Part shown: in pieces, positions 15,401 to 31,040 of the stretch
Layout: every line of letters starts with the position of its first letter
Position numbering within the stretch: position 1 is the stretch's first letter
Assembly (NCBI GenBank): GCA_018713745.1
Contig: DVOH01000016.1
Location: 15,604-79,603, forward strand
Direction: 5' to 3'
Length of the DNA: 64,000 nt
Origin: Candidatus Stercoripulliclostridium merdipullorum
GTDB taxonomy: Bacteria; Bacillota; Clostridia; Christensenellales; DTU072
The notes under the pieces: model-generated
What the model was told of the DNA's origin: nothing
Database searches by the model: none
The model's input: only the letters and a program-made list of their open reading frames with translations
Program-made: the position numbers and the translations under genes

Positions 15401-18400
15401 TGCTTCTTATGTCTACGGCGATAAGGCGGCAGGCGCCGATCTCGGGCACACCGTTTGGACGTCGGGCGGAACGCAAATCACGGCAGAGGACTATACCTTT
15501 ACGACAAGCGGCAATATCGCAGAGATTCCCTTCTATCTCACGTTTTCGGTTGCGGCGGCAGGGACTTCTCCCCGCCCGGCAGGAAGCTATCCGATTTCGG
15601 TCTCTACCTCGTCGCCGATCTACTCCATTGGCGGAACGGCAGGAAACTACGTCGTCAGTCCTAAGCCCGTCACCGTGACGATCGCAAGCGCCAACAAAAC
15701 GTACGGCGACGGCGATCCGACGTTTGCCTGGTCGACGACGGATACCCTTCCTTACGGCGAAGTCGCGAAAGACGTTTTGGGTATTACGCTGTCCCGCGAC
15801 GAGGGCGAAGACGTCAAAGATGGCGGCTATGCGATCACGGGATCGTCGACCAACGGGAATTACGCCATCAGCTGGGCCAACGGAACGCTGACGATCAACC
15901 CCAAAGCGATTACCGTGACGATCGACGACAAAACGCAGGTTTACGGGGATCCCGAGGAAACTTTGACCTGTAGCGTCGGCGGTCTGGTGAACGGCGATAC
16001 CGAAGGGGATCTCAACATTCACTTACAAAGAGCGGAGGGGCGAGACGTGGCGAAGTATCCCATTACGGGGACTTATACCAACGCCAATTATACCGTCACG
16101 TTTACGGACGGTGTTTATACGATCACCCCGCGTCCGATCACCGTGACGATCGCAAGCGCCAACAAAACGTACGGCGACGGCGATCCGACGTTTACCTGGT
16201 CGACGGCGGACTCGCTCCCTTACGGCGAAGTCGCGGAAGAAGTTTTGGGTATTACCCTGTCCCGTGAAGGGGGCGAAGACGTCAAAGATGGCGGCTATGC
16301 GATCACGGGATCGTCGACCAACGGGAATTACGCCATCAGCTGGACCAACGGCACGCTGACGATCGACCCCAAAGCGATCACCGTGACGATCGACGACAAA
16401 ACGCAGGTTTACGGGGATCCCGCAGTTGCGTTGACCGCGCAGACAGAGGCGACGCTTCCTTACGGCGATCTGCTGGAAAATATCGTGTCACTGACCCGCG
16501 AAGCGGGCGATACCGTCAAAGAGGGCGGCTACGCGATCACGGGCGAAGGAGTAAGCGACAACTATAACGTCACATTTCATAATAACGGCGTTTATACGAT
16601 CACCGCGCGCCCCGTTACCGTGACGCTGACCTTCGGCGGTTTGACGGAAGAGGGCGGCATCTATTATTGGACGTACGGCGATTACGGCGCGGGCGGCTTC
16701 GGAACCGGAACGGCAACGATAACCGTTTCGGAGAGCGGCTTGGTATCGGGCGACGGCGTCGGGGCAGACTTCGCCGTTACGCAAGAGGGCATTGCCGCAA
16801 CCCTGAAAAATGTCGGAACCTATACCTTCGGCATTGTGTTGACGGGGGACAACGCCCGCAACTACGCGCTGACCAAAGTGTTTGAAGGGATTACGGGCGA
16901 AGGCGACACGCGCGATGTCGAAGTCCGTCCGTTGGTGCTCGAATATACGACGAAGTCCGCAAGTTTTGTATACAATGAATATACGGCGGAAAAGCCGCTT
17001 CCCTCCCCCGACGCGATCGGCGCCAAGGCAACTCTCGAGACGGAGCTTCCGTACGGCGACGCGGAGCCGGAAATTGTCCTTGTTTATACCGATGATCCCG
17101 CCGAGATCATGAAATTGTCGGTGGGGGAATACAAAAAAATTCTGATGCAACTCGCCGAGGGGCAAAGCAATTACAGCCTTTCCGCAGACAGCGATCTGAT
17201 TACGCTGATCATAGAGAAGGGGACGATCTCTCTTGCGTTGGACGAAAGTTTTGTCACGGATTATACCTATGCGGCGGATCTTAGCGTTTCGTTCGGCGAT
17301 AAATTGACCGCGAAGGACGAGTTTGGGAAGCCTTATGTTCCCCAATATACTGCCAAACTCTATTTCGACGAAAGTAAAAAGTGGTTTGAAGGTACGACCT
17401 CGGTCGGTGTTCCGTATGTTCCGTCCGTCGATCAGGAAGAAACGTTTGTTACGCTGACGCTCGAAATCCTTGTAAGCAGCGATTCCAACTACAACGACGC
17501 TACGCTGACGGTACCGATTACGTTGCGGAAAGGGGCGTTCGATCTTACGGGCGTAACGTTTGAGAATCAGACGTTTATCTATGACGGAACCGCGCACGAA
17601 ATGGCTTTTGCGGGGTTGCCGATCGCGCAGAACGGTGAAACGCTGAGCGGCAGCGTCGTTTATCCCGACGGCGCCGATCGCGTCAACCATACCCCCGCCC
17701 CGATCGCGGCGCAACTGGTCTTTACCGTTTCGGGCAAAGAGTATGACGGAATTACCTATTATAATTACAAGATTCCCGATCCGTGGACGGCGACCATGAC
17801 GATCGACAAGGCAACCGTCGATCTCTCCCGCTACGGCTTGGTGCTCGAACGCAGACAACAGGCGGACGGCGCGGTACGCGAAACCCTTACGATCGAAGGG
17901 AGTTCCGTTACGGTTGTTTATTATGCGGGGTGCGCGTTCTTCGTCGTGCCCGACGCCGATCTTCCCGCCTTTATCGAGGCGGAGATAACGGGAGAAGCCG
18001 CCGCGACGGGTGCCGGCGCGGTCAAGTGGGATGTGACGAATCGGAAAGCGCTTTCCTATCAATTCACCGTTAAGTTCAGTCTGAGCGACGCAAACGGCAA
18101 TTACGAAATTTCCGGCGCCGATCAGCGCACCGTCGAGGTTACCGTCGAACAGCGCAAAGTTACGCTGTCGCCCCGTCGACAGGATACCGTATTTAACGGC
18201 GAACAGCAGATTCCGAGTGCGGACCTTACCAAGTGGCGGTACGCCTTCGAGGGTGTAGAAGGAGAGGCGCTTGCCGCTTTCCTTGCCGACTTTGAGAAAA
18301 GCGGAACGTTTGCCGCGCGTGCCGAGTCCTTTACCTCGATCGGCACTGATAAGGCGGTCAACGCCGGGATTTACGCCATCAACGGCGTTTATACCCCCGA

Positions 18401-21400
18401 TTCGGGCAATTACAACTATGCCGTCACCGTCAACAAATCGCAAGAAAATTCGGCAGACAGCGCCGACGCCTTTGTCATCGCCAAAGCGCAATACGGAAAC
18501 CTCGACAACGTGACGTTCGACGGAAAAACCGTCGTCTACGACGGAAACGCGTATACGATCACGGTTTCGGGGCTTCCGACAGACGTCAACGGTGTCGGGG
18601 TCGAACCGCAGTATTCGGTGACGAAAGACGGCAGCGCGACGGAAGACGTCTTCTTTACCAACGCGGGAACGTATGACTATGTCGCGATTTGGAACGATCT
18701 CAATTACGAGGCAGTGACGCGGGAAGCGACGCTTATCATCCAAAAGGCAACCTTCGATCTTTCCGTCGTTCGGTTCGAGGACGGCACGTTTATCTACGAC
18801 GGGCAGTATCATAGCCTTGCCCTTTCGTCGGACGAGCCCCTCCCCGATTGGATTACGGTTTCTTACAGCTCCAACAATTCCAAAAAGGATGTCGGCCCCT
18901 CCTTGGTGGTTACGCTGGAGCTTTCCCACGAAAACCCCAACTATCATGCGTTCGACGCAAGTGTCGCGCAACAACGCGCAACGCTTACCATCGCGGCGCG
19001 CCCCATCGATGTGACGATTCTGTCCGCAAGCAAGGTGTACGGCGATGTCGATCCCGCTTTCGACTGGGAGAGCGGCGAAGGCTTGGTCGAAGGGGACGAT
19101 CTGAAGATTACGGTAAGCCGCGACGATCGCGACAATCAAAACGTCGGTACTTACGTATTGAACGGGACAAGCGGCAACGGGAATTATGCCGTTACCTTCA
19201 ATTCCGATGCCGTTCTGACGATCGGGCAACGCGACCTTGTGATCGATCTCGATAGCGTTTCGAAGGTTTATCGCTATCCCGATCCCAATCCCGACCCCGA
19301 TCTGACGTTCGGGATTGCGGACGGATATCAATTATATTATGACGATACCGTTGCGCTTCTCGGCGTTACGCTCAGTCGCGCCGCGGGTGAAACGGCAGGG
19401 AGTTACGAGATCACGGCAACCCTTCCCGACGCCGGCAACTATCGCATTACGGTCGGCAGAACCGCGGTCTTGACGATTGCAAAAGCCGACGTTACGATCG
19501 GCGTCGAGGGCATCGTCAAGGACTATGTTTACACCGGGGTGTCCTTCCGCATCGAAACAGGGGCGACCCACAATAATACCGACGAGGGCGCGGTGCTGAT
19601 CTATCCCGACAAGGACTTCCTGCTGGTTGCCGATTCGGGCGAATACACCGTGTCGATTGCCGAAACCGCCAACTACAATGCCCAAAGCGTAACCTTTACC
19701 GTTACCATTGTCAGAGCCGACGTCGCGTTTGATTTCGGCGGGGTCGGGCAGTATGTTTACAACGGTTCGCTGCAGACCGTCACGGGCGTTACCCACACCA
19801 ATACCGATGCCGAAGCAACCTTAGTGTATCGCAATCATACGTTTACCGATGTTCCCGAAAACGGGATCCTGACGATCGAGGTTTCGATTGCCCAAACCGC
19901 AAACTTTAATGCGGCGAGCGCAACCTTCGACGTTACGGTCGACAAAGCGACGTATGTCATCGATATCGCCTTTGACGATCAAACCGTCCGCTATCACGGC
20001 GACGCCGTCGACCTTTTGATCGCAGGGGAGCTCCCCGAGGGCGTAACCGTCCGCTATACCGGCAACGGCAATCGCAATCAGGGCGTATATGTGGTCGTTG
20101 CCGAATTCGAGGGCGACGGACGCAACTATCATCCCATCCCCGATCGCGAAGCAACGCTGACGATTCTGCCCGCGTCGCTTTCGGTTACGATCGACGATCA
20201 GACTTCGGTTTACGGCGATGCGCTCAATACGTTGACCTATCTTGTCGAAGGAGAAATCTACAGCCAGGACGGCGTCAAGGACGATCCGATGATCGGCGTA
20301 TTCAAAGAAGACGGGCTTCGTGCGGGCGAGTACGCAATCACGGGACACGGCGGCAATGCCAACTATGACGTGACGTTTGAGAGCGCCGTTTATCGCATCA
20401 CCCCGCGGGAAGCAACGCTTACCGCCAATGAGGTGACTGCCGTTTACGGCGATCTCGACACGGCATTGACCTTTGTCGCGGACAACGTGCTGGACGGCGA
20501 TCTCGAGCGGTTTACGGGCGGGTTGCAACGCGAACCCGGCAGAAACGTAGGGAAATACGCGATCTCTTCCACACTTGCCAATCCCGACTATACGATCACG
20601 TTTGTTTCGGCAGATTATATCGTTTTGCCGCGCGAAGTGACCGTTACCCTGCGCGATCAGTCGGGCATTTCGGGCGAGGACGTTCTCAGCCAGTCGGCGT
20701 ATGACATTACCGACGGCAACGTGATCGCAGGCGATACGCTGGGGCTCCGTTTGCGGCGCGCACCCGGGACCACGCGCGGCGAGTATCCCATCACGGCGAC
20801 CTACTCCAACAAAAACTATCTTCTGGACATCATCCCTGCAATCTATTATCTGTCCGAGCGCGCGGTCATTACGTTCACTCGTCCTTCCGACTTCGTCTAT
20901 GACGGCAATCCCTTCTCGATCAGCGCGTCGATCAACAGCGACACCGCTTTGATCTTTACCGTCAACGGCGTCCGCAGCGACAACTTCTTCGATGCGCCCG
21001 GCAATTACTCCGTCCGCATTTCGGCGACGGCAACCGACGAATACGTCGAACCCATCCCCGTCAGCTTCACCTTTACGATTTTGGCGGCGGAATTGATCTT
21101 TACCGACGAGCAGGGCGGCGAAATCATCATTTCCCTCCCCGAAGGATTTATGCCCGGCACGGCGATCGAAGTCGTTCTTGCCGAGTCTTCGGTCAAAGAC
21201 GCCATTCATAAGCAGATCTCTACCGCTTACGCCATGGTCGAGGGTTACGATATCTATATCGTCGAAAACGGCGTCAAAATCCCCCTCGGAGAGTATGTTG
21301 CGTCCGATACGCTCAAAGTCCGCATCAAACTTCCCTCCGTGTTTGCCGAGGAAGAATCGGTTTGGTTTGTCGGATTCCGAGGCGGAAAAGCCGAACTCGG

Positions 21401-21572
21401 CGAACTGACCAACGAGGACGGTTATATCGTTATCGAAGGCGGCAGCTTTGACTCGGTAATCTTTGTCAGTCGGCAGGAACTGTCGACGTTTATCTATCTG
21501 TTGATCGGCGTCGTTATTCTCGTTGCCGTTGTCATGACGGCGTACTTCCTGTTCCGTCGCAAGACGATATAA
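12462..21572 (+). CDS. Giant (3036 aa) cell-surface repeat protein: N-terminal signal/anchor, GLUG-type beta-helix region, many MBG-like (YGD) repeats, C-terminal TM anchor
   Basis: Single uninterrupted ORF with SD GAGGAGAGG. The N-terminus has a hydrophobic helix (LLALGLVVLVVMTAVFAWG). It has repeated GGIVG/GGLAG motifs. There are at least 10 modules of about 75-80 aa of the form (I/V)TVTI...YGD.DP....L.GD....L.R..GE.VG.Y.I.......NY.(I/V).F..G.(L/Y)TI. The C-terminus is LLIGVVILVAVVMTAYFLFRRK. Confidence 0.85.
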   Translation: MTRFADRLFRRKMLLALGLVVLVVMTAVFAWGAAPDPAPAVQAAWSGNAASGFAGGTGTADDPYRIATAEQLAYFRNQVNGGRTFEGEYIVLTANIDLIGTSGTKQGFGTIGTPTIDYGEEYRPNGAGGNVRIATGVSGTPFQGVFDARIYEIKNLYWNGGDYRGLFGYIGEKGKVYNVTISNVELISTGSLNGTIAAVNRGLIDNCVVASGTVKSAGRAGGIVGFNYGGTVRNSINWANVSANGKSIVGNHIPGIHNVDWLGSDFGGIAGVMTSGAVIDQCANYGNVTGSAEVGADSGGTRAGGLAGLLDTSTISDSYFIGSLSNRNTNDIGGFTGSIYDGTVTNCYHQSGASKLYGWEQSTTGGTRTNNHASGSEAAGSLNNGVWKVDTARHNGYPYLINTRLFDSYAASQSDLGLLPEGSVPAGYNNTNGTPISSADDFYAFRNAENTTQNYYLTQDITVTYPKNGNNIVHYGLWYGGTFDGNGHTITFQAGTSGSWCSTMRYSRAFGGFFASTINGGTVKNLKIVVEDSYTTTDLDNTEVTSGFGVIAGDVSGATIDNVSVEVKTLKFHTECNYGGWTNRVNWYGQTSFGGLFGTANDANNNGVTIRNTSVTFTGTPEFKRKTDDGGVWSFFGGLIGNIKNTAAINIQGVRVHFQNGARYLMYRSNSGHFGGMIGETYAGGTVNISDSFYDFDGELYTENLTGGYKGKLIAAVQSGTTKLNNIYYGPGAEASKIYVPNGGEPTQKNYYEIAGFDGAGFLRADFDPQTPGMMWVTLNADGGSETLGRAGEWDWSKDWDGMILVGSQPGTYSVRMSTAQLKAFSTLNKGTGSVSNDLYTDVNLSSSLSFSGQASGIVSELRKWQTSPPEMRNYFGTWRGGIAVESGSGTVEIFDKETGEFVWATDGSQNGNYFDNDGNLVTNDKGIGHLIPGTYVARLVHPYAAVLHHGSTNRYWYDFETIPFVEFTIEPKTVTVEASASYVYGDKAAGADLGHTVWTSGGTQITAEDYTFTTSGNIAEIPFYLTFSVAAAGTSPRPAGSYPISVSTSSPIYSIGGTAGNYVVSPKPVTVTIASANKTYGDGDPTFAWSTTDTLPYGEVAKDVLGITLSRDEGEDVKDGGYAITGSSTNGNYAISWANGTLTINPKAITVTIDDKTQVYGDPEETLTCSVGGLVNGDTEGDLNIHLQRAEGRDVAKYPITGTYTNANYTVTFTDGVYTITPRPITVTIASANKTYGDGDPTFTWSTADSLPYGEVAEEVLGITLSREGGEDVKDGGYAITGSSTNGNYAISWTNGTLTIDPKAITVTIDDKTQVYGDPAVALTAQTEATLPYGDLLENIVSLTREAGDTVKEGGYAITGEGVSDNYNVTFHNNGVYTITARPVTVTLTFGGLTEEGGIYYWTYGDYGAGGFGTGTATITVSESGLVSGDGVGADFAVTQEGIAATLKNVGTYTFGIVLTGDNARNYALTKVFEGITGEGDTRDVEVRPLVLEYTTKSASFVYNEYTAEKPLPSPDAIGAKATLETELPYGDAEPEIVLVYTDDPAEIMKLSVGEYKKILMQLAEGQSNYSLSADSDLITLIIEKGTISLALDESFVTDYTYAADLSVSFGDKLTAKDEFGKPYVPQYTAKLYFDESKKWFEGTTSVGVPYVPSVDQEETFVTLTLEILVSSDSNYNDATLTVPITLRKGAFDLTGVTFENQTFIYDGTAHEMAFAGLPIAQNGETLSGSVVYPDGADRVNHTPAPIAAQLVFTVSGKEYDGITYYNYKIPDPWTATMTIDKATVDLSRYGLVLERRQQADGAVRETLTIEGSSVTVVYYAGCAFFVVPDADLPAFIEAEITGEAAATGAGAVKWDVTNRKALSYQFTVKFSLSDANGNYEISGADQRTVEVTVEQRKVTLSPRRQDTVFNGEQQIPSADLTKWRYAFEGVEGEALAAFLADFEKSGTFAARAESFTSIGTDKAVNAGIYAINGVYTPDSGNYNYAVTVNKSQENSADSADAFVIAKAQYGNLDNVTFDGKTVVYDGNAYTITVSGLPTDVNGVGVEPQYSVTKDGSATEDVFFTNAGTYDYVAIWNDLNYEAVTREATLIIQKATFDLSVVRFEDGTFIYDGQYHSLALSSDEPLPDWITVSYSSNNSKKDVGPSLVVTLELSHENPNYHAFDASVAQQRATLTIAARPIDVTILSASKVYGDVDPAFDWESGEGLVEGDDLKITVSRDDRDNQNVGTYVLNGTSGNGNYAVTFNSDAVLTIGQRDLVIDLDSVSKVYRYPDPNPDPDLTFGIADGYQLYYDDTVALLGVTLSRAAGETAGSYEITATLPDAGNYRITVGRTAVLTIAKADVTIGVEGIVKDYVYTGVSFRIETGATHNNTDEGAVLIYPDKDFLLVADSGEYTVSIAETANYNAQSVTFTVTIVRADVAFDFGGVGQYVYNGSLQTVTGVTHTNTDAEATLVYRNHTFTDVPENGILTIEVSIAQTANFNAASATFDVTVDKATYVIDIAFDDQTVRYHGDAVDLLIAGELPEGVTVRYTGNGNRNQGVYVVVAEFEGDGRNYHPIPDREATLTILPASLSVTIDDQTSVYGDALNTLTYLVEGEIYSQDGVKDDPMIGVFKEDGLRAGEYAITGHGGNANYDVTFESAVYRITPREATLTANEVTAVYGDLDTALTFVADNVLDGDLERFTGGLQREPGRNVGKYAISSTLANPDYTITFVSADYIVLPREVTVTLRDQSGISGEDVLSQSAYDITDGNVIAGDTLGLRLRRAPGTTRGEYPITATYSNKNYLLDIIPAIYYLSERAVITFTRPSDFVYDGNPFSISASINSDTALIFTVNGVRSDNFFDAPGNYSVRISATATDEYVEPIPVSFTFTILAAELIFTDEQGGEIIISLPEGFMPGTAIEVVLAESSVKDAIHKQISTAYAMVEGYDIYIVENGVKIPLGEYVASDTLKVRIKLPSVFAEEESVWFVGFRGGKAELGELTNEDGYIVIEGGSFDSVIFVSRQELSTFIYLLIGVVILVAVVMTAYFLFRRKTI
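15671..16420 (+). repeat. Tandem intragenic duplication, period 468 bp (156 codons), about 1.6 copies
   Basis: CACCGTGACGATCGCAAGCGCCAACAAAACGTACGGCGACGGCGATCCGACGTTT... occurs at 15671 and again at 16139. About 285 bp align with only scattered substitutions (by eye above 90 percent) before the copies diverge near 16420. Confidence 0.8.
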
Positions 21573-21578
21573 TCCCGT

Positions 21579-22781
21579 ATGGCGGCTAAACCCGAACTGC
21601 TTGCCCCGGCGGGCAACTTCGCAAAACTTAAGACGGCGCTTGCGTTCGGCGCAGACGCCGTCTATCTCGGAGGGAAGCGGTTTTCCCTCCGTTCTTATGC
21701 CGACAACTTCGATTTCGATACGCTCAAAGAAGCCGTAAGCGTCGCTCACGACGCGCGCAAAAAAGTGTATGTCGCCGTCAATATTTTTTGCAAGGATTCC
21801 GACTTTGCCGACCTGAAAGAAGAGCTGCCACGCTTGCATCGGGCAGGCGTCGACGCGCTGATCGTTTCAGATCCCGGCTTGATTGCCTTTGCCAAAGAAT
21901 CGGTCCCCGATCTCGCGTTGCATCTTTCGACGCAGGCAAATACCCTCAATTCGCACGCCGTGCGGTTTTGGCATCGGCAAGGGGTGGAGCGCGTCGTTCT
22001 GGCGCGGGAGCTGTCGGCGGATCAGGTCAAAGCGATCAAGGACGCCGTTCCCGAAATGGAGATCGAGTGCTTTGTGCACGGCGCGATGTGCATTTCGTAT
22101 TCGGGCAGATGCCTGTTGTCCAATTATCTTGCCCGACGCGACGCCAATCGCGGGGAATGCGTACAAGCGTGCCGATGGCACTTCCGCGTTTCGGAGGGCG
22201 ACAACGCGCTCGAACTCGAAGAGGACGCGCGCGGTACCTATCTTCTCAACAGCAAAGATCTCAATTTGATCGACCGCATCCCCGCTCTGATCGAAGCGGG
22301 GGTCGACTCCTTCAAAATCGAAGGACGGATGAAATCGGAGTATTATGTCGCAACGGTAACCGAGGCGTATCGTCGCGCAATCGACGCCGTACTCGGCGGC
22401 GGCGCTGTGCCGAAGTCGTCGGTCGAGCTTCTCGAAAACGTTACGCATCGCCCCTATACGCATGCCTATTTCGACGGCGACAACGCGGCGACCGTTTCGT
22501 ACGACGACAGCCAGCAGGGCGGGAAGGGCGTATTTGTCGCGGTCGTGCTGGGGGCGGAAGGTAAGACGGCTCTGGTCGAAATGCGCAACCGCTTCCGCGA
22601 CGGCGAAACGTTAAAGGTGCTGTCGCCGCAGTATTCCGCGGATCTTGACGTTACCGTCCGGAATCTGCGGGACGCGGAAGGCACTCCCGTAGCCGACGCC
22701 AAACTGGTACAGCAACAACTGTATTTCGACAGCGATTTGTCGCTGACGAAGGGAGATATTTTGTATCGGAGATCGGTTTGA
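21579..22781 (+). CDS. U32 family protein (peptidase U32 / prephenate-dependent hydroxylase family), short form
   Basis: 400-aa ORF starting MAAKPELLAPAGNFAKLKTALAFGADAVYLGG..., with E..VHGA.C.SYSGRC and a Cys cluster (RGECVQACRW) typical of U32. Confidence 0.85.
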   Translation: MAAKPELLAPAGNFAKLKTALAFGADAVYLGGKRFSLRSYADNFDFDTLKEAVSVAHDARKKVYVAVNIFCKDSDFADLKEELPRLHRAGVDALIVSDPGLIAFAKESVPDLALHLSTQANTLNSHAVRFWHRQGVERVVLARELSADQVKAIKDAVPEMEIECFVHGAMCISYSGRCLLSNYLARRDANRGECVQACRWHFRVSEGDNALELEEDARGTYLLNSKDLNLIDRIPALIEAGVDSFKIEGRMKSEYYVATVTEAYRRAIDAVLGGGAVPKSSVELLENVTHRPYTHAYFDGDNAATVSYDDSQQGGKGVFVAVVLGAEGKTALVEMRNRFRDGETLKVLSPQYSADLDVTVRNLRDAEGTPVADAKLVQQQLYFDSDLSLTKGDILYRRSV

Positions 22782-22793
22782 TTGCAAAATCGC

Positions 22794-22822
22794 TTGACAA
22801 CTCCGCTCAAAAGGAATATGAT
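22794..22822 (+). promoter_or_regulatory. Sigma-A type promoter of the aro operon leader
   Basis: TTGACA 22794-22799, 17 nt, TATGAT 22817-22822. The leader-peptide ATG (22829) lies 6 nt after the -10, so the predicted start of transcription is at or next to the A of the ATG. Confidence 0.5.
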
Positions 22823-22828
22823 CTTGGT

Positions 22829-22897
22829 ATGAACACCGCAAAGATTTTCGCTTACGAATATTTTTACTTTAAGGGCTTTTACTTTACGAAGTCCTGA
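22829..22897 (+). CDS. Candidate leader peptide, 22 aa, 5 Phe + 4 Tyr: MNTAKIFAYEYFYFKGFYFTKS
   Basis: Own translation: atg aac acc gca aag att ttc gct tac gaa tat ttt tac ttt aag ggc ttt tac ttt acg aag tcc tga. Nine of 22 codons are Phe or Tyr. It lies between the promoter and a terminator directly upstream of the genes that make Phe and Tyr. Confidence 0.6.
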   Translation: MNTAKIFAYEYFYFKGFYFTKS

Positions 22898-22901
22898 TTT
22901 T

Positions 22902-22953
22902 CGTGCGCGGTTATCCGAGGGTTTTCTCATTATCAACACGTTTAGCCGCCACG
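22902..22953 (+). promoter_or_regulatory. Candidate antiterminator helix of the aro leader
   Basis: 5'-CGTG(C)GCGGTTA (22902-22913) can pair with 5'-TAGCCGCCACG (22943-22953), giving 11 pairs, one bulge and one G-U. This sequesters the 5' arm of the terminator. Its 5' strand starts 5 nt after the leader stop codon. Confidence 0.45.
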
Positions 22954-22969
22954 CATTGGCGGCTTTTTT
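22944..22969 (+). terminator. Intrinsic terminator (attenuator) upstream of aroF
   Basis: AGCCGCCA (22944-22951), loop CGCAT, TGGCGGCT (22957-22964), T-run to 22969. Located 31 nt before the aroF ATG. Confidence 0.7.
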
Positions 22970-22999
22970 ATTCTACCGGCAAAAGGAGCAGTAAAGATT

Positions 23000-24019
23000 A
23001 TGATTATCGTCATCAAACAGAATCCCGACGAAAAACAACTCAACAATCTCGTCAAATGGGTCCGAAGCCTCGGTCTGGAAGTTCACATGAGCCGCGGCGA
23101 AAACACCAATATCATGGGGCTGATCGGCGATACGTCCGCCGTCGATATCGACTTGATCCGTTCCCTCGATATCGTCGAAACCGTCAAGCGGATTCAGGAG
23201 CCGTACAAAAACGCCAACCGTAAATTTCACCCGCAAGATACCGTCGTTTCGGTCGGCGGCTATCCCATCGGCGGCGGACACTTCCAATTTATGGCGGGAC
23301 CGTGTTCGGTCGAGTCCGAAGAGCAGGTGATTGCCATCGCAAAAGCCGTCAAAGAGGCTGGCGCGACCATTCTGCGCGGCGGTGCGTTCAAACCGCGGAC
23401 GTCGCCTTACGCCTTCCAAGGACTGGGCGAAAGCGGTATTCAACTTCTTCTGGAAGCCAAACGCGAAACCGGTATGCCGATCGTCACCGAATTGATGTCG
23501 GTCAGACATATCGACGCCTTCCGCGACGTCGATATGATTCAGATCGGCGCGCGCAATATGCAAAACTTCGAGCTTCTGAAGGAAGTCGGCAGAACCGACA
23601 AACCGATTTTGTTGAAGCGCGGGCTTGCCAACACCATTCAGGAGTGGCTGATGTCGGCAGAGTATATTATGAGCGAAGGCAACATGAACGTCGTGCTGTG
23701 CGAGCGCGGCATCCGAACCTTCGAGCCTTACACGCGCAACACGCTTGACCTGTCGGCGATTCCGCTCCTGCGCGATCTGACGCATCTGCCGATCATCGTC
23801 GATCCTTCGCACGCATCGGGAATTTCCAAACTCGTTGCTCCGATGTCGCTTGCCGCCGTCGGCGCGGGGACGGACGGCTTGATGATCGAAGTCCACAACA
23901 ATCCCGCCTGTGCGCTATGCGACGGACCGCAGGCGTTGACGCCCGAGCAGTTTGCCGACGTGGTCAAAAACGTCGACGTCTTACTGCCCATCGTGCATCG
24001 TGTGAGGGACGGAAAATGA
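23000..24019 (+). CDS. aroF: 3-deoxy-7-phosphoheptulonate (DAHP) synthase, type I-beta with N-terminal ACT/ferredoxin-like regulatory domain
   Basis: 339-aa ORF. An N-terminal domain of about 65 aa (MIIVIKQNPDEKQLNNLVKWV...) is followed by the KDSA-like barrel (MAGPCSVESEEQ, LRGGAFKPRTSPY, DPSHA). Confidence 0.9.
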   Translation: MIIVIKQNPDEKQLNNLVKWVRSLGLEVHMSRGENTNIMGLIGDTSAVDIDLIRSLDIVETVKRIQEPYKNANRKFHPQDTVVSVGGYPIGGGHFQFMAGPCSVESEEQVIAIAKAVKEAGATILRGGAFKPRTSPYAFQGLGESGIQLLLEAKRETGMPIVTELMSVRHIDAFRDVDMIQIGARNMQNFELLKEVGRTDKPILLKRGLANTIQEWLMSAEYIMSEGNMNVVLCERGIRTFEPYTRNTLDLSAIPLLRDLTHLPIIVDPSHASGISKLVAPMSLAAVGAGTDGLMIEVHNNPACALCDGPQALTPEQFADVVKNVDVLLPIVHRVRDGK

Positions 24020-24891
24020 AGATCGGAATCGTAGGACTCGGTCTGATCGGCGGTTCGGCGGGACGCGCTCTCTGCAAACGGACGGCGCACGAAGTCTATG
24101 CCTTTGACACCGACCCGTCGGCGATGCTGAAAGGCGAAATGCTCGAAGCCTATCATCAGCCGCTGACGGAAGAAAACGCATCCGAACTCGATCTTCTGCT
24201 GATTGCGCTGTATCCTGCCAAAACCGTTTGGGCGTTGGAGCATTACGTCCCCTTGCTGAAAGAAGGATGCATCGTCGCGGACTTTGCGGGCGTCAAGCGG
24301 AAGCCCGTTGCCGAAATGCAAAAACTTGCCGTTCGATATCCCGGAATTTATTTGATAGGAGCCCATCCGATGGCGGGCAGGGAATTCAGCGGAATTTCTC
24401 ATTCGACGCCCGGGCTGTTTGACCGGGCCACGATGCCCATTGTCAACGTCAATGCTCCGATCGACGCACTGCACCGCTTTCGTTCGGTGTGTCTGGAGAT
24501 CGGCTTTGACGGCATTGTGCCGACTTCCGCCGAAGAGCATGACCGCGTCATCGCGTATACCTCGCAGCTTGCGCATATCGTTTCGGCAGCGTATGTGGTA
24601 AACCCCATTGCCTTGCGGCATCACGGGTATTCGGCAGGCAGTTTCCGCGATATGACGCGGGTGGCAAAACTCAATCCCGGGATGTGGACCGAACTGTTTT
24701 CGGACAACCGCGACAACTTGATCGAAGCCGTCAAAATGATCGAGGACGCTTTGCGCGAATACCGTCTTGCGTTGGAAAGTGACGACAAAGACCGTCTGTT
24801 TGCCCTTCTCGATCGGGCAAACCGCACCAAGGAAGCCGTCGAAGCGGATGCAAAACGCAAAAAGCAGGAGGCAATTTATGATAACGATTGA
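24016..24891 (+). CDS. tyrA: Prephenate dehydrogenase
   Basis: ATG at 24016 overlaps the aroF stop (ATGA). MKIGIVGLGLIGGS Rossmann motif and HPMAG motif. Confidence 0.85.
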   Translation: MKIGIVGLGLIGGSAGRALCKRTAHEVYAFDTDPSAMLKGEMLEAYHQPLTEENASELDLLLIALYPAKTVWALEHYVPLLKEGCIVADFAGVKRKPVAEMQKLAVRYPGIYLIGAHPMAGREFSGISHSTPGLFDRATMPIVNVNAPIDALHRFRSVCLEIGFDGIVPTSAEEHDRVIAYTSQLAHIVSAAYVVNPIALRHHGYSAGSFRDMTRVAKLNPGMWTELFSDNRDNLIEAVKMIEDALREYRLALESDDKDRLFALLDRANRTKEAVEADAKRKKQEAIYDND

Positions 24892-25915
24892 CGTCAAGGC
24901 GTCACGCCCGTACCGCGTGGAGATCGAGTCGGGCGGACTGCGGAAAATCGGTGCCCGAATTTCCGCCCTCCACAAACTCTGCCGTGTTCTGCTGGTTGCC
25001 GACGACACCGTTGACGGGCGGTACGGCGATGTCGTGCGGCAGTCGCTCGAAGAAGCCGGATTCGATGTCGTTCGGTTTGTTTTTCGGCACGGAGAGCAAA
25101 GCAAAACGCTTGATACGTATCAACAAATTTTAGGATCGGCAGCCCGCAACCGACTGCGCCGCTCCGACTTGATGGTTGCATTGGGCGGAGGCGTAACGGG
25201 CGATCTGACGGGATTTGCCGCGGCAACGTATCTGCGCGGCGTCGATTATGTGCAGATTCCGACGACGCTGCTTGCCGCGATCGACTCTTCGGTCGGCGGA
25301 AAAACCGGAGTCGACCTGCCCGAAGGCAAAAATCTCGTCGGGGCGTTTCATCAGCCCATCGGCGTATTCTGCGACCCCGACGTGTTTCGGACTCTTCCGA
25401 CAGAAGTTTTGCGGGACGGGATCGGGGAAAGTCTGAAGTACGCCGTTTTGGACGGCGGCGTCTTGCTGGAAACGTTGGAGCAAGGCGACGTTTGCTCCGA
25501 GCGGTTTGTCGCGCTTTGCGTCGACAGTAAGCGGCGTATTGTCGAGCGCGACGAGCGGGAAGGCGGGTTAAGACGCTTACTCAATCTCGGGCATACCTAC
25601 GCCCATGCCATCGAACGTTGTTCGGGATACCGCTTAACGCACGGTTTGTGCGTGGCGCGCGGGTTGCACGAAATGATTGCGTGGTCGGAGCGCAACGGTT
25701 TGATTTCCGCCCCTTCGGCAGAACGCATCCGCGCCATTTACCGCCGCTATGATATGCCGACCGATCCGGTTTATGACAAAAAGGAGCTGATTGCCGCGAT
25801 GGCAACCGACAAAAAAACGGAAGGGGATGAGATCACTTTGATTTTGCCCTATGAAATCGGTGACTGCCGCCCCGTGCGCGTACCGCTCGGAGAATTGGAG
25901 AAATTTTTGCAATGA
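24878..25915 (+). CDS. aroB: 3-dehydroquinate synthase
   Basis: ATG at 24878 after AGGAGG. Motifs GGGVTGDLTGFAAATYLRG, PTTLLA..DSSVGGKTGV, NLGHTYAHA. Confidence 0.9.
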   Translation: MITIDVKASRPYRVEIESGGLRKIGARISALHKLCRVLLVADDTVDGRYGDVVRQSLEEAGFDVVRFVFRHGEQSKTLDTYQQILGSAARNRLRRSDLMVALGGGVTGDLTGFAAATYLRGVDYVQIPTTLLAAIDSSVGGKTGVDLPEGKNLVGAFHQPIGVFCDPDVFRTLPTEVLRDGIGESLKYAVLDGGVLLETLEQGDVCSERFVALCVDSKRRIVERDEREGGLRRLLNLGHTYAHAIERCSGYRLTHGLCVARGLHEMIAWSERNGLISAPSAERIRAIYRRYDMPTDPVYDKKELIAAMATDKKTEGDEITLILPYEIGDCRPVRVPLGELEKFLQ

Positions 25916-27168
25916 ACGCCAAAGTATTCCCATCCCGTTTGTCGGGGCGGGTGGAAGCCGTCCCCTCCAAGTCCTACGCTCATCGGATGCTGATTGCGGC
26001 GGCGCTTGCCGACCGCCCGACGCGGATTAACCGCATCGGCAGATCGCAAGACGTATGCGCCACGATCGGGGGATTAATTGCGTTGGGTGCAACAATCGAA
26101 CGGAAAGGAGAGGACGTTATCGTCCATCCCGTTTCCGCGCCGCCCGCATCCGCCCTCGTCGATTGCAACGAGTCCGGGTCGACGCTCCGCTTTTTGATTC
26201 CGGTCGCCGCGGCGCTCGGCGTCGAAGCGACGTTTGTCGGAAAAGGACGGCTTGCGGAGCGTCCCGTCGCCGCACTGGTCGATGCCCTCGGACAGGCGGG
26301 CGTTCGCATCGAAGGGACGGGACTGCCCCTTTCGATCTGCGGCAGGTTGACTTCGGATGGCGTCGAAGTCGACGGAGGTCTGAGTTCGCAATATGTCACG
26401 GGGATGCTGTTTGCGCTGGCGGCGCAGGGCGGCAATCGTCGTCTGAAGGTCAAGGGGAAACGGGTTTCCGAAAGTTATCTTGCCCTGACAATCGATGTGC
26501 TTGCCCGCTTCGGCGTGCGGGTCACGGCAACCGCGGAAGGATATACGGTCGTCGGCAATCTTCGCTCTCCCGGGGAAATTACGGTCGAGGGCGACTGGTC
26601 AAACGCGGCGTTTTTTGCCGTTTGCGGCGCGCTGTCGGGGACGATCGAGATCGTTAATCTTAATCCCCACAGCCTGCAGGGCGACCGTCGGATTGTTTCG
26701 ATCCTCGAAGAAGCGGGAGCGGCGGTCGAAGCGGGGGACGATTTTGTCAGGGTTTCGGCGGGAAAACTGAAAGCGATTTCCGCCGATTGCGAGCAAATCC
26801 CCGATCTGGTCCCCGTTGTCGCCGTGCTGACGGCGTTTGCGGAGGGCAGGAGCGTGTTGACGGGAGTTGCCCGTCTTAAGCTGAAAGAGAGCGATCGTTT
26901 GACGCAAACCGTTCGGCTGATCGAAGGTCTGGGCGGCGCGGCAAGCGCGACCGAGCATCGTATCGTCGTTGACGGACAGAGTGCGTTGCAAGGCGGACAA
27001 ACCATAGAAGGCACCAACGATCATCGGCTGGTGATGGCGGGTGCCGTCGGCGCGGCGGCAACGACGCTCGGCGCAACGATTACGGATGCCGAAGCGGTCC
27101 ACAAGTCATATCCCGATTTTTGGGAAGTATTTGAAGCAACGGGAGGCAGATATGAGCTGGATGTTTGA
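25912..27168 (+). CDS. aroA: 3-phosphoshikimate 1-carboxyvinyltransferase (EPSP synthase)
   Basis: 418-aa ORF. Motifs PSKSYAHR, NESGSTLRFL, LKESDR, DHRLVMA. Confidence 0.9.
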   Translation: MNAKVFPSRLSGRVEAVPSKSYAHRMLIAAALADRPTRINRIGRSQDVCATIGGLIALGATIERKGEDVIVHPVSAPPASALVDCNESGSTLRFLIPVAAALGVEATFVGKGRLAERPVAALVDALGQAGVRIEGTGLPLSICGRLTSDGVEVDGGLSSQYVTGMLFALAAQGGNRRLKVKGKRVSESYLALTIDVLARFGVRVTATAEGYTVVGNLRSPGEITVEGDWSNAAFFAVCGALSGTIEIVNLNPHSLQGDRRIVSILEEAGAAVEAGDDFVRVSAGKLKAISADCEQIPDLVPVVAVLTAFAEGRSVLTGVARLKLKESDRLTQTVRLIEGLGGAASATEHRIVVDGQSALQGGQTIEGTNDHRLVMAGAVGAAATTLGATITDAEAVHKSYPDFWEVFEATGGRYELDV

Positions 27169-28213
27169 GCGGTTGCGTTTGTCGGTGTTCGGCGAGTCGC
27201 ACGGCAAGGCGATCGGTGCGGTAATCGAAGGCTTGCCGGCAGGCGAGGCCGTCGACCTTGAAGCGATCAAATGCTGTATGGAGCGGAGAAAAGGGAAATC
27301 CGCCGCGGTTTCGACGACGCGCGGGGAGTCGGACGAAGTCGAAATTCTGTCGGGACTGTACCGCGGCAAGACGACGGGTACTCCTTTGGCGTTGCAGATC
27401 GTCAATCGCACGCAACGGAGCGAAGACTACGATCTGACGGTGTTTCGTCCGTCGCATGCCGATTATACCGCGCAAATCCGTTACGGCGGCAACGCCGATA
27501 TGCGCGGCGGCGGGCATTTTTCGGGCAGGCTGACCGCACCTCTTGTGGCTGCGGGTGCGATTGCAAAGCAAATTTTAGGGCGGCGCGCGATCGAAGTCGA
27601 AGCGTTTGTGTCGTCCGTGGGTGCAGTCAAAGGACTGACGTACGAAAGCGTGTCCGACCCGACCGAAATTGCGGCAAGACGAACCGAAGTCGTCGGCGCG
27701 CTGGATGACGAAAGCGCAATGCTTGCCGTCATTCGCGCGGCGCGCGAGCAGGGCGACTCGGTCGGCGGAACGGTCGATTGTGTTGCGGCAGGGTTGCCTG
27801 CCGGGTACGGCGATCCCTTGTGGTACGGCGTCGAAAGCCGACTTGCGGCGATGCTGTTCGGGATTCCGGCGGTCAAAGGGGTGGAGTTCGGCAGAGGGTT
27901 CGGATTGGCTGAGATGCGCGGGAGCGAAGCAAACGATCCGTTTGCCCTGCGGGAAGGAAGAGTTGTTACGACAAGCAACCGGAGCGGCGGTATCAACGGC
28001 GGAATCACCAACGGAATGCCGTTGACGTTCCGTACGGCGTTCCGACCGACGCCGACGATCTTTGTGCCGCAGAAAACCGTGACGGCAGAGGGACGGGAAA
28101 CGGAATATTCCGTCAAAGGCAGACACGACGGATGTATCGTTCCGCGGGCGGCAGTCGTGGTCGAATGTGCGGCGGCGCTGATCCTGTTGGATCTTGCCGA
28201 ACGCTATCGCTGA
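27152..28213 (+). CDS. aroC: Chorismate synthase
   Basis: ATG at 27152 after GGGAGG. FGESHGKAIGAVIEGLPAG, RPSHADYT and GRHD motifs. Overlaps the aroA end. Confidence 0.9.
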   Translation: MSWMFERLRLSVFGESHGKAIGAVIEGLPAGEAVDLEAIKCCMERRKGKSAAVSTTRGESDEVEILSGLYRGKTTGTPLALQIVNRTQRSEDYDLTVFRPSHADYTAQIRYGGNADMRGGGHFSGRLTAPLVAAGAIAKQILGRRAIEVEAFVSSVGAVKGLTYESVSDPTEIAARRTEVVGALDDESAMLAVIRAAREQGDSVGGTVDCVAAGLPAGYGDPLWYGVESRLAAMLFGIPAVKGVEFGRGFGLAEMRGSEANDPFALREGRVVTTSNRSGGINGGITNGMPLTFRTAFRPTPTIFVPQKTVTAEGRETEYSVKGRHDGCIVPRAAVVVECAAALILLDLAERYR

Positions 28214-28250
28214 AAATCGAAAAAATACCGATCGAGAGGAGAAATATAAT

Positions 28251-29390
28251 ATGTTAACCGAAATCAGAGAGAAAATCGATGCAATTGACGACAAGATCGC
28301 GGCGCTGTACGACGAACGGATGAAACTGGTCAAAGAAGTGGCGCTCGAGAAGAGCAAAACAGGCGTTAATCTGGTCGATCGCGGACGGGAAAAGGCCATT
28401 GTCAGCCGTGTGACCAAAGCGGTTTCGCCCGACATCAAAGTGTTTACCAAACTGGTATACGATACGATTTTCGAGACCAGCAGAGGGTATCAGAGTCGCT
28501 ATCTCAACGCGACGTCGCCGACGGCGCAGGCGATTGCGGAAGCAATCGAAGGCGGAGCGCTGAAGTTTCCCGAAGCGGCAACGGTTGCCTGCCAAGGGGT
28601 GGAAGGGGCATACAGCAATCTTGCCGCCGAAAAACTGTTCCGCCTTGCCGATATCATGTATTTCAAAAATTTCGAAGGTGTATTCAACGCCGTCGAAAAG
28701 GGACTTTGCGAGTACGGCGTTTTGCCCATCGAAAACAGTTCGGTCGGGTCGGTCAACGCGGTATACGATCTGATGCGCGAACATCGCTTTTATATCGTGC
28801 GGAGCGTCAAGCTGCGTGTAAGACACAGCTTGCTTGCCGTGCGTCAAACGACCAAAGACGCCATCCGCGAGGTCGTATCGCACGAACAGGCGCTTCGGCA
28901 GTGCGAAGGCTTTTTGAAAACGCTGAAAAACGTCAAGATCACCGTGGTCGACAACACCGCGCAGGCGGCGCGCATCGTTGCCGAAAGCGGTCGGAAAGAT
29001 CTTGCGTGTCTGTCTTCTCCCGAGTGTGCCGCACTTTACGGGCTTGGCGTCGTGCAAAGCGACGTGCAGGACTCCGACACCAATTATACGCGGTTTATTT
29101 GCATTTCCAAAAAACTCCGGATTTTTGCGCCGGCAACGCGCATCAGCATGATGGTCAGCCTGCCGCACGAGCCGGGCAGCCTCAACCGAACGCTCAACAA
29201 GTTTGCCGTTTTGGGACTCAATCTGACCAAATTGGAATCCCGTCCCTTGCCGAACAGTACGTTTGAGTTTATGTTCTATTTCGACTTCGAAGGGCAGCTC
29301 GAAAATCGCGAGGTGCAAAACCTGATTGCCGAACTCGAAGGCGACAGCGCGATGTTCACCTTCCTCGGCAGCTACGCAGAGGTGCAGTGA
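28251..29390 (+). CDS. pheA: Bifunctional chorismate mutase / prephenate dehydratase (P-protein) with C-terminal ACT domain
   Basis: ATG at 28251 after GAGAGGAG. N-terminal CM helix (IREKIDAIDDKIAALYDERMKLV), PDT core (VACQGVEGAYSNLAA...PIENSSVGSV...TRF), then an ACT-like tail. Confidence 0.85.
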   Translation: MLTEIREKIDAIDDKIAALYDERMKLVKEVALEKSKTGVNLVDRGREKAIVSRVTKAVSPDIKVFTKLVYDTIFETSRGYQSRYLNATSPTAQAIAEAIEGGALKFPEAATVACQGVEGAYSNLAAEKLFRLADIMYFKNFEGVFNAVEKGLCEYGVLPIENSSVGSVNAVYDLMREHRFYIVRSVKLRVRHSLLAVRQTTKDAIREVVSHEQALRQCEGFLKTLKNVKITVVDNTAQAARIVAESGRKDLACLSSPECAALYGLGVVQSDVQDSDTNYTRFICISKKLRIFAPATRISMMVSLPHEPGSLNRTLNKFAVLGLNLTKLESRPLPNSTFEFMFYFDFEGQLENREVQNLIAELEGDSAMFTFLGSYAEVQ

Positions 29391-29391
29391 C

Positions 29392-30606
29392 GTGTACGGA
29401 CTGATCGGCAATCCGCTGGGGCACAGCTACTCGGCGATGATCCACAAAAAGTTAGGGTACGACTACGCGTTGCAAGAAGTCGAACCCGAAGCCCTCGAGG
29501 CGTTTGTCAAAAGTCGCCGCTTTACGGGCTATAACGTTACGATCCCGTACAAGCGGGCGATTATGCCCCTTCTGGACGTCATCGACAAGACGGCGGAGGC
29601 GGTCGGCGCGGTCAATACCGTCATCGATCGCGCGGGGGTCAGGACGGGCTACAACACCGATCTTGACGGAATGGCGTATGCCATGCGGTCGGCAGGGATT
29701 CGGCTTCGGGACAAATCGGTCGTCATACTGGGCACGGGCGGCACGTCGCACACCGCCGTTGCGCTTGTTCGGCGCGAAGGGGCGCGGAAGGTGACGATCG
29801 TCAGTCGGAAAGGAGAGTGGAATTACGACAATTATGCCGCCCTGACCGATACCGAGATCGTCATCAACACGACTCCCGTCGGGATGTATCCCGACAACGG
29901 GTCTCGCCCTGTCGATCTCGCGGTGTTTCCGAGGCTCGAAGGAGTGTTCGACGCGGTATACAACCCCTTGAAAACCCGACTGATTCTGCAAGCGGAGTCC
30001 CTCGGCGCAAAGTGTGCGGGAGGATTGAAAATGCTGGTGGCGCAAGCCGTCTACGCCCGCAATCTTTTTTTGGAAGAAGCGGGGGACGACGCGCTGATCG
30101 AAACGGTTTATGACGCCTTGCTGAAAGAAGTGCGCAATCTCGTTTTGGTCGGCATGCCCGGGTCGGGGAAGTCGACGATCGGCTTTCAGCTTGCGCGCTT
30201 TTACGGGATGCCGTTTGTCGACGTCGACCGTCTGATCGAGCGTAACGCGGGGAAGACGGTTGCCGCGATCTTCGATGCCGAAGGCGAAGCAGGCTTCCGG
30301 CAAAGGGAGCGTCGGGCGATCGAGGCGGTTTCCAAACGGAAAGGCATCGTGATCGCAACGGGAGGCGGCGCGGTCTGCGACGCCGAAAACCGCTTGCAAT
30401 TACGCGGAAACGGGACTATAATTTATCTGAAGCGTGACGCGCAAGCGTTGGCAACGGACGGCAGACCTCTTTCGTCTTCGTTGGAGAAGTTATGTGAAAT
30501 GGAAGCTGTGCGCGCGCCGATTTACGCTTCGGTCGCCGATTTTACGGTCGACAACAACGGCGGAATCGGAGCGACCGTTGCCGCCGTCCTGAAGGAGCTC
30601 GGATGA
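29392..30606 (+). CDS. aroE/aroK: Shikimate dehydrogenase fused to shikimate kinase
   Basis: Probable GTG start at 29392, 1 nt after the pheA stop, with AGAGG about 10 nt upstream. The N-terminal part is AroE (YGLIGNPLGHSYS, NVTIPYK, NTD). From about residue 250 there is a Walker A (GMPGSGKSTIG) and shikimate-kinase pattern. Confidence 0.8.
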   Translation: MYGLIGNPLGHSYSAMIHKKLGYDYALQEVEPEALEAFVKSRRFTGYNVTIPYKRAIMPLLDVIDKTAEAVGAVNTVIDRAGVRTGYNTDLDGMAYAMRSAGIRLRDKSVVILGTGGTSHTAVALVRREGARKVTIVSRKGEWNYDNYAALTDTEIVINTTPVGMYPDNGSRPVDLAVFPRLEGVFDAVYNPLKTRLILQAESLGAKCAGGLKMLVAQAVYARNLFLEEAGDDALIETVYDALLKEVRNLVLVGMPGSGKSTIGFQLARFYGMPFVDVDRLIERNAGKTVAAIFDAEGEAGFRQRERRAIEAVSKRKGIVIATGGGAVCDAENRLQLRGNGTIIYLKRDAQALATDGRPLSSSLEKLCEMEAVRAPIYASVADFTVDNNGGIGATVAAVLKELG

Positions 30607-31040
30607 AAATACTTTGTCTGCACGGACCCAACCTCAATTTGCTCGGCATTCGCGAACCCGATCTGTACGGGGATCGCTCTTATCGCGCGCTGATTGCGTT
30701 TGTGCGGCGCGTCGCCGCGGAGCAGGGCGTTTCGATCCGTTGCAAACAGACCAATCACGAAGGAAAACTCGTCGATTGGATTCAGAAAGCGCGGGGACGT
30801 TATGACGGGATCGTCATCAACGCCGGCGCATATACCCATACCTCGGTCGCCGTTCTCGACGCCTTGAAAGCGGTGGGCATCCCCACGGCGGAAGTCCATC
30901 TGACCGATATCGACAGCCGCGAAGATTTCCGAAAGCACAGTTATATTTCGCTTTATGCCGCCGTTCGGGTGGCGGGCGAAGGGTTCGAAGGGTATCGCCG
31001 CGCATTGACGGAGCTGGTTGCGTTATGTCGGAACTCTTAG
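30603..31040 (+). CDS. aroQ: Type II 3-dehydroquinate dehydratase
   Basis: 145-aa ORF MKILCLHGPNLNLLGIREPDLYG...QTNHEG...INAGAYTHTS. Confidence 0.9.
   Translation: MKILCLHGPNLNLLGIREPDLYGDRSYRALIAFVRRVAAEQGVSIRCKQTNHEGKLVDWIQKARGRYDGIVINAGAYTHTSVAVLDALKAVGIPTAEVHLTDIDSREDFRKHSYISLYAAVRVAGEGFEGYRRALTELVALCRNS

Follow-up and report, generated by a model that had tools for sequence, protein, structure and literature searches.

The 64,000-nucleotide stretch of Candidatus Stercoripulliclostridium merdipullorum DNA analysed here (contig DVOH01000016.1, positions 15,604 to 79,603; hereafter "the window", whose numbering is used throughout) carries a shikimate-tyrosine-phenylalanine operon, and this report concerns the short region that separates the first gene of the operon, aroF, from a U32-family gene encoded immediately upstream on the same strand. 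Within this region lie a strong predicted promoter, a Phe/Tyr-rich open reading frame (ORF) of 22 codons, an intrinsic terminator and a set of alternative RNA helices. Taken together, these elements very probably constitute a ribosome-mediated attenuator, which would sense charged tRNA-Phe and tRNA-Tyr and control the whole of aroF-tyrA-aroB-aroA-aroC-pheA-aroE/K-aroQ. The features of the leader and of the operon are as follows:

22794-22799 (+): -35 hexamer TTGACA, which together with the -10 hexamer matches the consensus at 11 of 12 positions; spacer 17 nucleotides (nt)
22817-22822 (+): -10 hexamer TATGAT, ending 6 nt before the leader ATG; predicted transcription start (+1) at A22829
22829-22897 (+): leader ORF encoding MNTAKIFAYEYFYFKGFYFTKS, followed by TGA (22895-22897); 22 codons, five Phe and four Tyr, no Trp
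22847-22885 (+): regulatory Phe/Tyr codons read from the sequence, the proposed stall sites
22848-22858 (+): region 1, 5' strand of the anti-antiterminator (UCGCUUACGAA, codons F-A-Y-E), from the pair list of the minimum free energy fold
22872-22895 (+): hairpin ending at the stop codon and followed by UUUU; terminator-like, 8 pairs, nested in the 1:2 helix
22900-22913 (+): region 2, of which 22900-22910 pairs with region 1 and 22902-22913 with region 3
22943-22953 (+): region 3, 3' strand of the antiterminator, covering the terminator 5' arm (22944-22951) and part of its loop
22944-22970 (+): intrinsic terminator; stem 22944-22951/22957-22964, loop 22952-22956, T-run 22965-22970
22985-22988 (+): Shine-Dalgarno sequence of aroF, GGAG, 11 nt before the ATG at 23000
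23000-24019 (+): aroF, first gene of the operon, DAHP synthase with an N-terminal ferredoxin-like regulatory domain (FXD)
24016-31040 (+): tyrA, aroB, aroA, aroC, pheA (CM-PDT-ACT), an aroE-aroK fusion and aroQ, the rest of the operon

The aromatic codons of the leader ORF, which lies 102 nt upstream of aroF, fall into two clusters, the first comprising F7, Y9, Y11, F12, Y13 and F14 (22847-22870) and the second F17, Y18 and F19 (22877-22885), and the motif FYF appears twice, at residues 12-14 and 17-19. When F/Y mini-ORFs were defined stringently (8-45 codons from an ATG, five or more F/Y codons, F/Y at 25% of codons or more, at least four F/Y in succession), both strands of the 64-kb window contained a single example, the one at 22829. 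Promoters of the quality found in front of it (11/12) number only eight on the two strands of the window, and one of these lies just upstream of the T-box described below, which suggests that the scan detects real promoters; no ATG of the window except 22829 is preceded by a promoter of this kind at a distance of 6-7 nt. An earlier reading of this DNA, made from the letters and the list of ORFs (hereafter the sequence-only reading), had pointed to the TTGACA-17-TATGAT promoter and to a 22-codon ORF with nine Phe/Tyr codons, and both are present where it placed them.

Downstream of the ORF, the terminator stem-loop (22944-22964) has 8 pairs, of which 6 are G-C, with a free energy of -14.0 kcal/mol, and is followed by six T residues. 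The antiterminator pairs 22902-22913 with 22943-22953 through 11 pairs with C22906 bulged (duplex -16.2 kcal/mol, full fold -16.8 kcal/mol) and begins 5 nt after the leader stop codon. Both structures had been noted in the sequence-only reading, the terminator at 22944-22969 and the alternative helix with 11 pairs at the same distance from the stop codon, and both were recovered at these coordinates, with the T-run reaching 22970. Folding of 22829-22975, which that reading had proposed as a check, gave a minimum free energy of -40.5 kcal/mol (z = -3.6, better than all 200 shuffles) in a structure that holds the terminator together with a further helix, in which 10 of the 11 positions of region 1 pair with 22900-22910 (UUCGUGCGCGG). 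Region 1 sits within and just upstream of the first F/Y cluster, and region 2 begins 2-5 nt after the stop codon. Since 9 of 11 nucleotides of region 2 are common to the 1:2 helix and the antiterminator, the 1:2 and 2:3 helices are mutually exclusive. The three helices complete a classical 1:2/2:3/3:4 attenuator, in which the 1:2 helix explains termination when the ORF is not translated. Thus, the ribosome-position switch of the sequence-only reading stands in its core, on the comparative evidence given below, but not in its two-state form, which lacks the anti-antiterminator 22848-22858/22900-22910. The locus accordingly combines a mini-ORF, cognate codons, a terminator, three exclusive helices and a geometry suited to masking by the ribosome, the elements by which leader-peptide attenuators are recognised. 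When a ribosome was modelled at the stop codon, the probability of the terminator was 0.98; with the ribosome on codon 13 and the 3' arm of the terminator still unmade, the antiterminator (-16.8 kcal/mol) outweighed the terminator alone (-14.0 kcal/mol).

The events that we infer from this arrangement, namely transcription start, translation of the ORF, ribosome stalling, polymerase pausing and the response to Phe and Tyr, would proceed as follows. A strong sigma-70-type promoter would start the transcript at A22829, and the 22-codon ORF would be translated leaderless. The stop-codon hairpin and the adjoining UUUU (22872-22899) would probably pause the polymerase while the ribosome catches up; the hairpin and its U-run are a candidate RNA polymerase pause site and a plausible synchroniser of ribosome and polymerase. 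With Phe and Tyr plentiful, the ribosome would arrive at the UGA (22895-22897), where its footprint, reaching about 12-13 nt 3' of the A site, would cover most of region 2; region 2 being masked, region 3 would pair with region 4, the terminator would form, and transcription would stop at the T-run, at about 22965-22970. With Phe or Tyr scarce, the ribosome would halt on one of the nine F/Y codons, cover region 1 and open the stop-codon hairpin, leaving region 2 free to pair with 22943-22953 before the 3' arm of the terminator is made, and the polymerase would read through into aroF. If the ORF were not translated at all, regions 1 and 2 would pair and the terminator would form. The stop-codon hairpin is conserved as GGCUAC...GUAGUC followed by UUU(U) among related loci with the same promoter geometry (L005, L016, L026, L033, L039).

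The comparative analysis drew on 80 aroF loci from species-representative genomes, with 64-76% AroF identity, and on another 80 from metagenomes; counts over 81 loci cover the 450 nt upstream of aroF in each. The identical AroF protein was found in 123 blocks of the assembly collection, the NCBI organism name being Candidatus Stercoripulliclostridium merdipullorum. The sequence-only reading had left it to comparative genomics whether an F/Y-rich mini-ORF precedes aroF in related genomes. It does: a stringent F/Y mini-ORF is present in 49 of 81 related Clostridia loci, as opposed to none in the 81 reverse complements and, in 20 dinucleotide shuffles of the entire locus set, a mean of 0.5 per shuffled set and never more than 2. 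For 47 of the 49 hits, the F/Y run is in frame with an ATG that has a correctly placed Shine-Dalgarno sequence or leaderless-type promoter, a combination that did not occur in the controls. Under looser criteria, an F/Y leader is found at 59/80 genome loci and 45/76 metagenome loci. The 94 distinct leader peptides collected in this way are 14-43 residues long and composed of 17.7% Phe, 15.6% Tyr (33% for the two together) and 0.2% Trp; a YFYF-like core is kept, with little other conservation. Among 60 leaders, 56 have a terminator behind them, and with a single exception it sits 16-63 nt past the stop codon. A homologue of tyrA occurs downstream at 72 of 80 loci, and no U32 homologue was found upstream of the aroF leader in any of the 69 relatives with enough flank for this check. 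Judged by these neighbourhoods, the leader element travels with aroF-tyrA and not with the gene upstream. The non-conserved upstream neighbourhood is illustrated by locus L026, where a flavin mononucleotide (FMN) riboswitch (70.5 bits; 2158-2288 of that locus, minus strand) is located some 130 nt from the aroF leader, upstream of it and on the opposite strand.

Conservation extends to the helices. Covariation was read by hand and by script between the window and L005-L007 only, where the register is identical; L006 belongs to Ca. Stercoripulliclostridium pullicola, of the same genus, and L005 and L007 are nearly identical to it. These loci share all three helices of the window, region 1 begins at ORF nucleotide 20 in both lineages, and 2 of the 11 pairs of the 1:2 helix carry compensatory double changes (C-G to U-A and A-U to C-G), with an additional U-G to U-A change in L007. 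MAFFT alignments of the leaderless subgroup misalign all sequence 3' of the F/Y run, because of indels and because the helices shift position from one lineage to another. In a set of 56 non-identical leaders, complementarity was stronger than in dinucleotide shuffles both between region 2 and the terminator 5' arm (mean z -0.85, p = 2.6e-6) and between the ORF and region 2 (mean z -0.81, p = 8e-5). Equilibrium folds with a masking ribosome gave the full expected pattern in 19 of 56 leaders, a partial discrimination in which strong terminators dominate, and a spacer-swap permutation between loci, a test of weak power, yielded -8.2 versus -6.6 kcal/mol. We therefore base the structural claim on the position of the helices, their mutual exclusivity, the comparison with the sister lineage and the family-level signal.

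Variation within the species was followed in six strain-level loci over the 142 nt from the leader ATG through the T-run. A single change falls inside the leader ORF, a synonymous AAC to AAT at codon 2, and the other variation over this interval is confined to the terminator loop. In L161, the most divergent of the six, 2 of the 142 positions differ, both in the terminator loop. The same strain has 6 changes in the 69 nt upstream of the leader, and the 29 nt between its terminator and aroF are heavily altered, with indels; two of the six bases between its -10 box and the ATG are changed and the spacing is preserved.

The window leader peptide is probably translated from a leaderless mRNA, because only 6 nt lie between the -10 box and the ATG, the interval 3-12 nt upstream of ATG 22829 has no Shine-Dalgarno sequence, and the geometry recurs at 11 other loci; the sequence-only reading is silent on this point. 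The arrangement thus unites a +1 predicted at A22829 from promoter geometry, an AUG start, the lack of a Shine-Dalgarno sequence and conservation: 12 loci including the window (L005-7, L016, L017, L019, L022, L026, L033, L034 and L039 being the others) have a perfect TTGACA, a spacer of 17-18 nt and a -10 box separated from the ATG by 6 nt (at one locus by 7), and in none of the 12 was a Shine-Dalgarno sequence found. Ten of them form one clade in the neighbour-joining tree of AroF. In the remaining leaders the -10 box is farther away, at about 15-46 nt from the ATG (for the majority 19-35), and in most of them a GGAG-type Shine-Dalgarno sequence precedes the ATG by 5-11 nt. The AAAGGA at 22810-22815 of the window lies 13 nt from the leader ATG and outside the predicted transcript.

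Two further groups of leaders have recognisable features of their own. In a Shine-Dalgarno-led subgroup (L008, L009, L015, L021, L023, L028, L030, L032), the peptides end in ...NxxxSISR, and a short palindromic hairpin, UAGUAAUUACUA, which spans the stop codon or closely follows it, duplicates the upper part of the terminator stem, GUAGUAAUUACUAC; in these leaders, two copies of a single palindrome provide the alternative pairing. At several loci of this subgroup the leader lies 200-430 nt upstream of aroF. Longer leaders of 28-40 codons, of Oscillospiraceae and Anaerovoracaceae type, are found at L040, L044-L050, L061, L065, L066, L068 and many of L085-L160, and they have a conserved G-K-(V/A)-x-F...A-A tail 3' of the F/Y run. 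Region 2 is probably encoded within the ORF by this tail, since in the folding model the terminator is opened by stalls near the beginning of the run but not by those near its end.

Several observations weigh against the interpretation of the locus as a leaderless Phe/Tyr attenuator. Under the stringent test 32 of the 81 loci lack an F/Y ORF, and under the looser criteria about one third of related loci still have none in the 450 nt upstream of aroF. In the window, the antiterminator duplex and the 1:2 duplex, each taken alone and compared with shuffles, are not significant (p = 0.09 and 0.13, respectively). At the modelled stalls, the probability of the terminator ranges from 0.25 to 0.90 and the terminator wins at most positions at equilibrium, so that the switch must be kinetic, as in classical attenuators. 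Covariation can be read against one sister lineage only, because genome, metagenome and protein searches returned no AroF relative between 77% and 99% identity (members of the same species being at 99-100%). Leaderless mRNAs are rare in Clostridia, with 15 genes mapped in C. difficile (PMC7438776), and the leaderless genes of Firmicutes are concentrated in Lactobacillales and Mycoplasma (PMC3160421). Finally, no terminator separates the upstream U32 gene from the leader, and some transcripts may therefore have a 5' extension.

This last point leads to an alternative that we regard as unlikely, although it deserves some weight, in which the attenuator is real but its transcripts start upstream, for example by read-through from the U32 gene, and ribosomes enter either via the weak AAAGGA at 22810-22815 or by coupling at TTG 22778. 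Besides the lack of a terminator between the U32 stop codon (22781) and the promoter and the rarity of leaderless genes in Clostridia, it draws on the TTG itself, which overlaps the U32 stop as TTGA and lies in the leader frame, giving a 39-codon ORF at 22778-22897. An in-frame open stretch of 17 codons is, however, expected by chance in about 44% of cases, and AAAGGA, 13 nt from the ATG, is too distant; moreover, the gene upstream of the leader differs in every relative, and coupling therefore cannot be the conserved mechanism. The 11/12 promoter, in turn, puts +1 on the A of the leader ATG, and the same geometry with a perfect TTGACA and no Shine-Dalgarno sequence is repeated at the other loci described above, mostly within one clade.

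It is very improbable that the leader is an untranslated regulatory RNA, whether a riboswitch, a T-box-like element or a TRAP- or PyrR-like protein-binding site on U/A-rich repeats, with the F/Y frame incidental. A terminator/antiterminator pair is common to all such RNA mechanisms, and UUU/UAC repeats could in principle bind a protein, but the F/Y run is in frame with a start-signalled ATG in nearly all stringent hits and never in the controls, and this frame is kept while peptide length and sequence vary. Rfam yielded no family match for the leader even at E <= 10 (best 23 bits) and no T-box match; the T-box model RF00230 itself had no match in 22700-23050 even at E <= 10, and searches of 27 related loci at gathering thresholds found neither a leader family nor a T-box upstream of aroF. 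The 142-nt leader is also shorter than a T-box and lacks T-box sequence. That the parts are unrelated, the hairpin serving as terminator of the U32 gene, the promoter serving aroF, and the mini-ORF being a chance product of AT-rich DNA or a micropeptide gene, we consider hardly credible. Terminator-like patterns are admittedly not rare (4 found in 2 kb versus 2.6 expected), and the intergenic region is AT-rich (41% GC versus 56% for the window). The chance ORF was nevertheless rejected on the reverse-complement and shuffle controls, which returned essentially none. The hairpin as terminator of the U32 gene was rejected as well: the terminator sits downstream, not upstream, of the promoter, and ORF and terminator accompany aroF regardless of the gene upstream, which in 0/69 relatives is a U32 gene. 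A micropeptide, for its part, would show conservation beyond the F/Y run, as opposed to lengths ranging from 14 to 43 residues.

The mechanism of the Phe/Tyr attenuator proposed here is that of E. coli pheL, trpL and hisL. Like the leaders of E. coli pheL-pheA and pheST, the window leader has a short ORF with aromatic codons, 1:2, 2:3 and 3:4 helices, a terminator and a decision made by ribosome position. Unlike pheL, it mixes Phe and Tyr codons, belongs to Clostridia, is devoid of a Shine-Dalgarno sequence and would control an entire shikimate-Tyr-Phe operon from DAHP synthase onwards. It has no homology to the E. coli leader in sequence or structure and is not a member of the Rfam family Phe_leader (RF01859), against which it scores 14.3 bits (E = 9.4) at a gathering score of 55.

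In Corynebacterium glutamicum, a leader peptide with Phe-Tyr-Phe, aroR, lies directly upstream of aroF, expression of which rises on Phe limitation via stalling (Neshat et al., 2014, as described in PMC11802643, PMC4046766 and PMC7356990). This aroR-aroF pair is the closest functional analogue, and the window leader also has FYF directly upstream of aroF, the analogy being one of function only. The two differ in that aroR is actinobacterial, has three regulatory codons versus nine in the window, and precedes an operon of different content; it seems likely that the two leaders are of independent origin. According to Neshat et al., the C. glutamicum aroR is reportedly also leaderless.

The closest prediction in a related lineage, compared with the window leader by description only, is uORFC-13-1, with 24 representatives, which come from Acholeplasma and unassigned environmental sequences and all precede aroF (Brewer et al., 2021, PMC8632094). 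It was described as a predicted upstream ORF with -35 and -10 boxes, a ribosome-binding site, a start codon, Phe-coding U-runs, an extra stem and a terminator directly behind the ORF (PMC8632094). It thus has a ribosome-binding site, which the window leader lacks; Phe alone is mentioned, and the antiterminator logic is not worked out. Other precedents in Firmicutes are His leader peptides predicted in the B. cereus group, Peptostreptococcaceae (C. difficile and relatives) and Erysipelotrichales (PMC9413887) and a leuL leader predicted in Streptococcus (PMC5314783). These have the same architecture and occur sporadically alongside T-boxes, but they concern other amino acids, operons and lineages, and none was described as leaderless. 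Leaderless leader peptides are documented in Actinobacteria, namely trpL, leuL and ilvL of Streptomyces lividans (PMC8079986) and the poly-Cys upstream ORFs of mycobacteria (bioRxiv 10.1101/834739). There the transcript begins with the mini-ORF and no Shine-Dalgarno sequence precedes it, as predicted for the window; leaderless mRNAs are common in Actinobacteria, whereas the Clostridia aroF family mixes leaderless and Shine-Dalgarno-led forms. Our literature searches found no description of a Clostridia aroF F/Y leader family, an absence that is not proof of novelty. The sequence-only reading had called a ribosome-mediated Phe/Tyr attenuator unusual in Firmicutes: such control does depart from the textbook picture of T-boxes and TRAP, but it is widespread in Clostridia and has the precedents listed above.

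Judged by sequence, then, the mechanism is a known one, and the leader belongs to a sizeable uncatalogued family without an Rfam match. We lean, with some reserve, towards the broader interpretation that a large uncatalogued family of F/Y attenuators is the main shikimate control across gut and rumen Clostridia (Christensenellales-like, Oscillospiraceae, Lachnospiraceae and Anaerovoracaceae) and that one clade has exchanged the Shine-Dalgarno sequence for a leaderless 5'-AUG. If so, the ribosome that does the sensing would engage as a 70S particle with the earliest nucleotides of the transcript, and the clade would offer a natural system for the coupling of leaderless initiation to RNA polymerase in a phylum where leaderless mRNAs are rare. 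DAHP synthase and the Phe/Tyr branch in many uncultured gut Clostridia would be under classical attenuation and not under the T-box or TRAP control commonly assumed, and attenuation would add a transcriptional layer atop the feedback-sensitive FXD domain of DAHP synthase. The mechanism being a textbook one, the conceptual gain is moderate, and the leaderless sub-clade is the most interesting aspect: leaderless and Shine-Dalgarno-led versions within one family could serve as a comparative system for leaderless translation and transcription-translation coupling in Bacillota. On the practical side, the leader ORFs of 14-43 codons are never called in metagenome-assembled genomes, and the distinct leaders, at least 94, suffice for an Rfam-type model that would improve the annotation of such genomes.

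The genes that flank the operon and the element that appears to govern Trp in the window are listed below:

21579-22781 (+): U32-family gene, TrhP-like, immediately upstream of the leader
31025-33208 (+): U32/TrhP-like gene, overlapping the end of aroQ by 16 nt
60720-62099 (-): gene for a TrpB-like pyridoxal phosphate-dependent enzyme (NF009057, 688 bits), 3' of the T-box
62250-62481 (-): Trp-specific T-box, specifier UGG (113.8 bits), the only Rfam match in the window

For both U32 genes the best NCBIfam match is the prephenate-dependent tRNA U34 hydroxylase TrhP, with scores of 389 bits (21579-22781) and 182 bits (31025-33208), both below the curated cut-off of 534. The downstream gene is probably co-transcribed with the aro operon, because it overlaps the end of aroQ, which points to a functional connection between the supply of prephenate and a hydroxylase that uses it. 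Directly upstream of the first U32 gene, an ORF of 3036 residues (12462-21572, plus strand) has at least eight MBG (YGX-type) repeat domains and probably encodes a giant surface protein. The operon content given in the sequence-only reading, with tyrA and pheA and no trp genes, is as we find it, and so is the separate control of Trp by a T-box at the gene it had named trpB2, the UGG specifier and the TrpB-like product agreeing with that assignment. The promoter of this T-box, at 62521, is TTGACA-17-TATGAT, identical in both hexamers and in spacing to that of the aroF leader.

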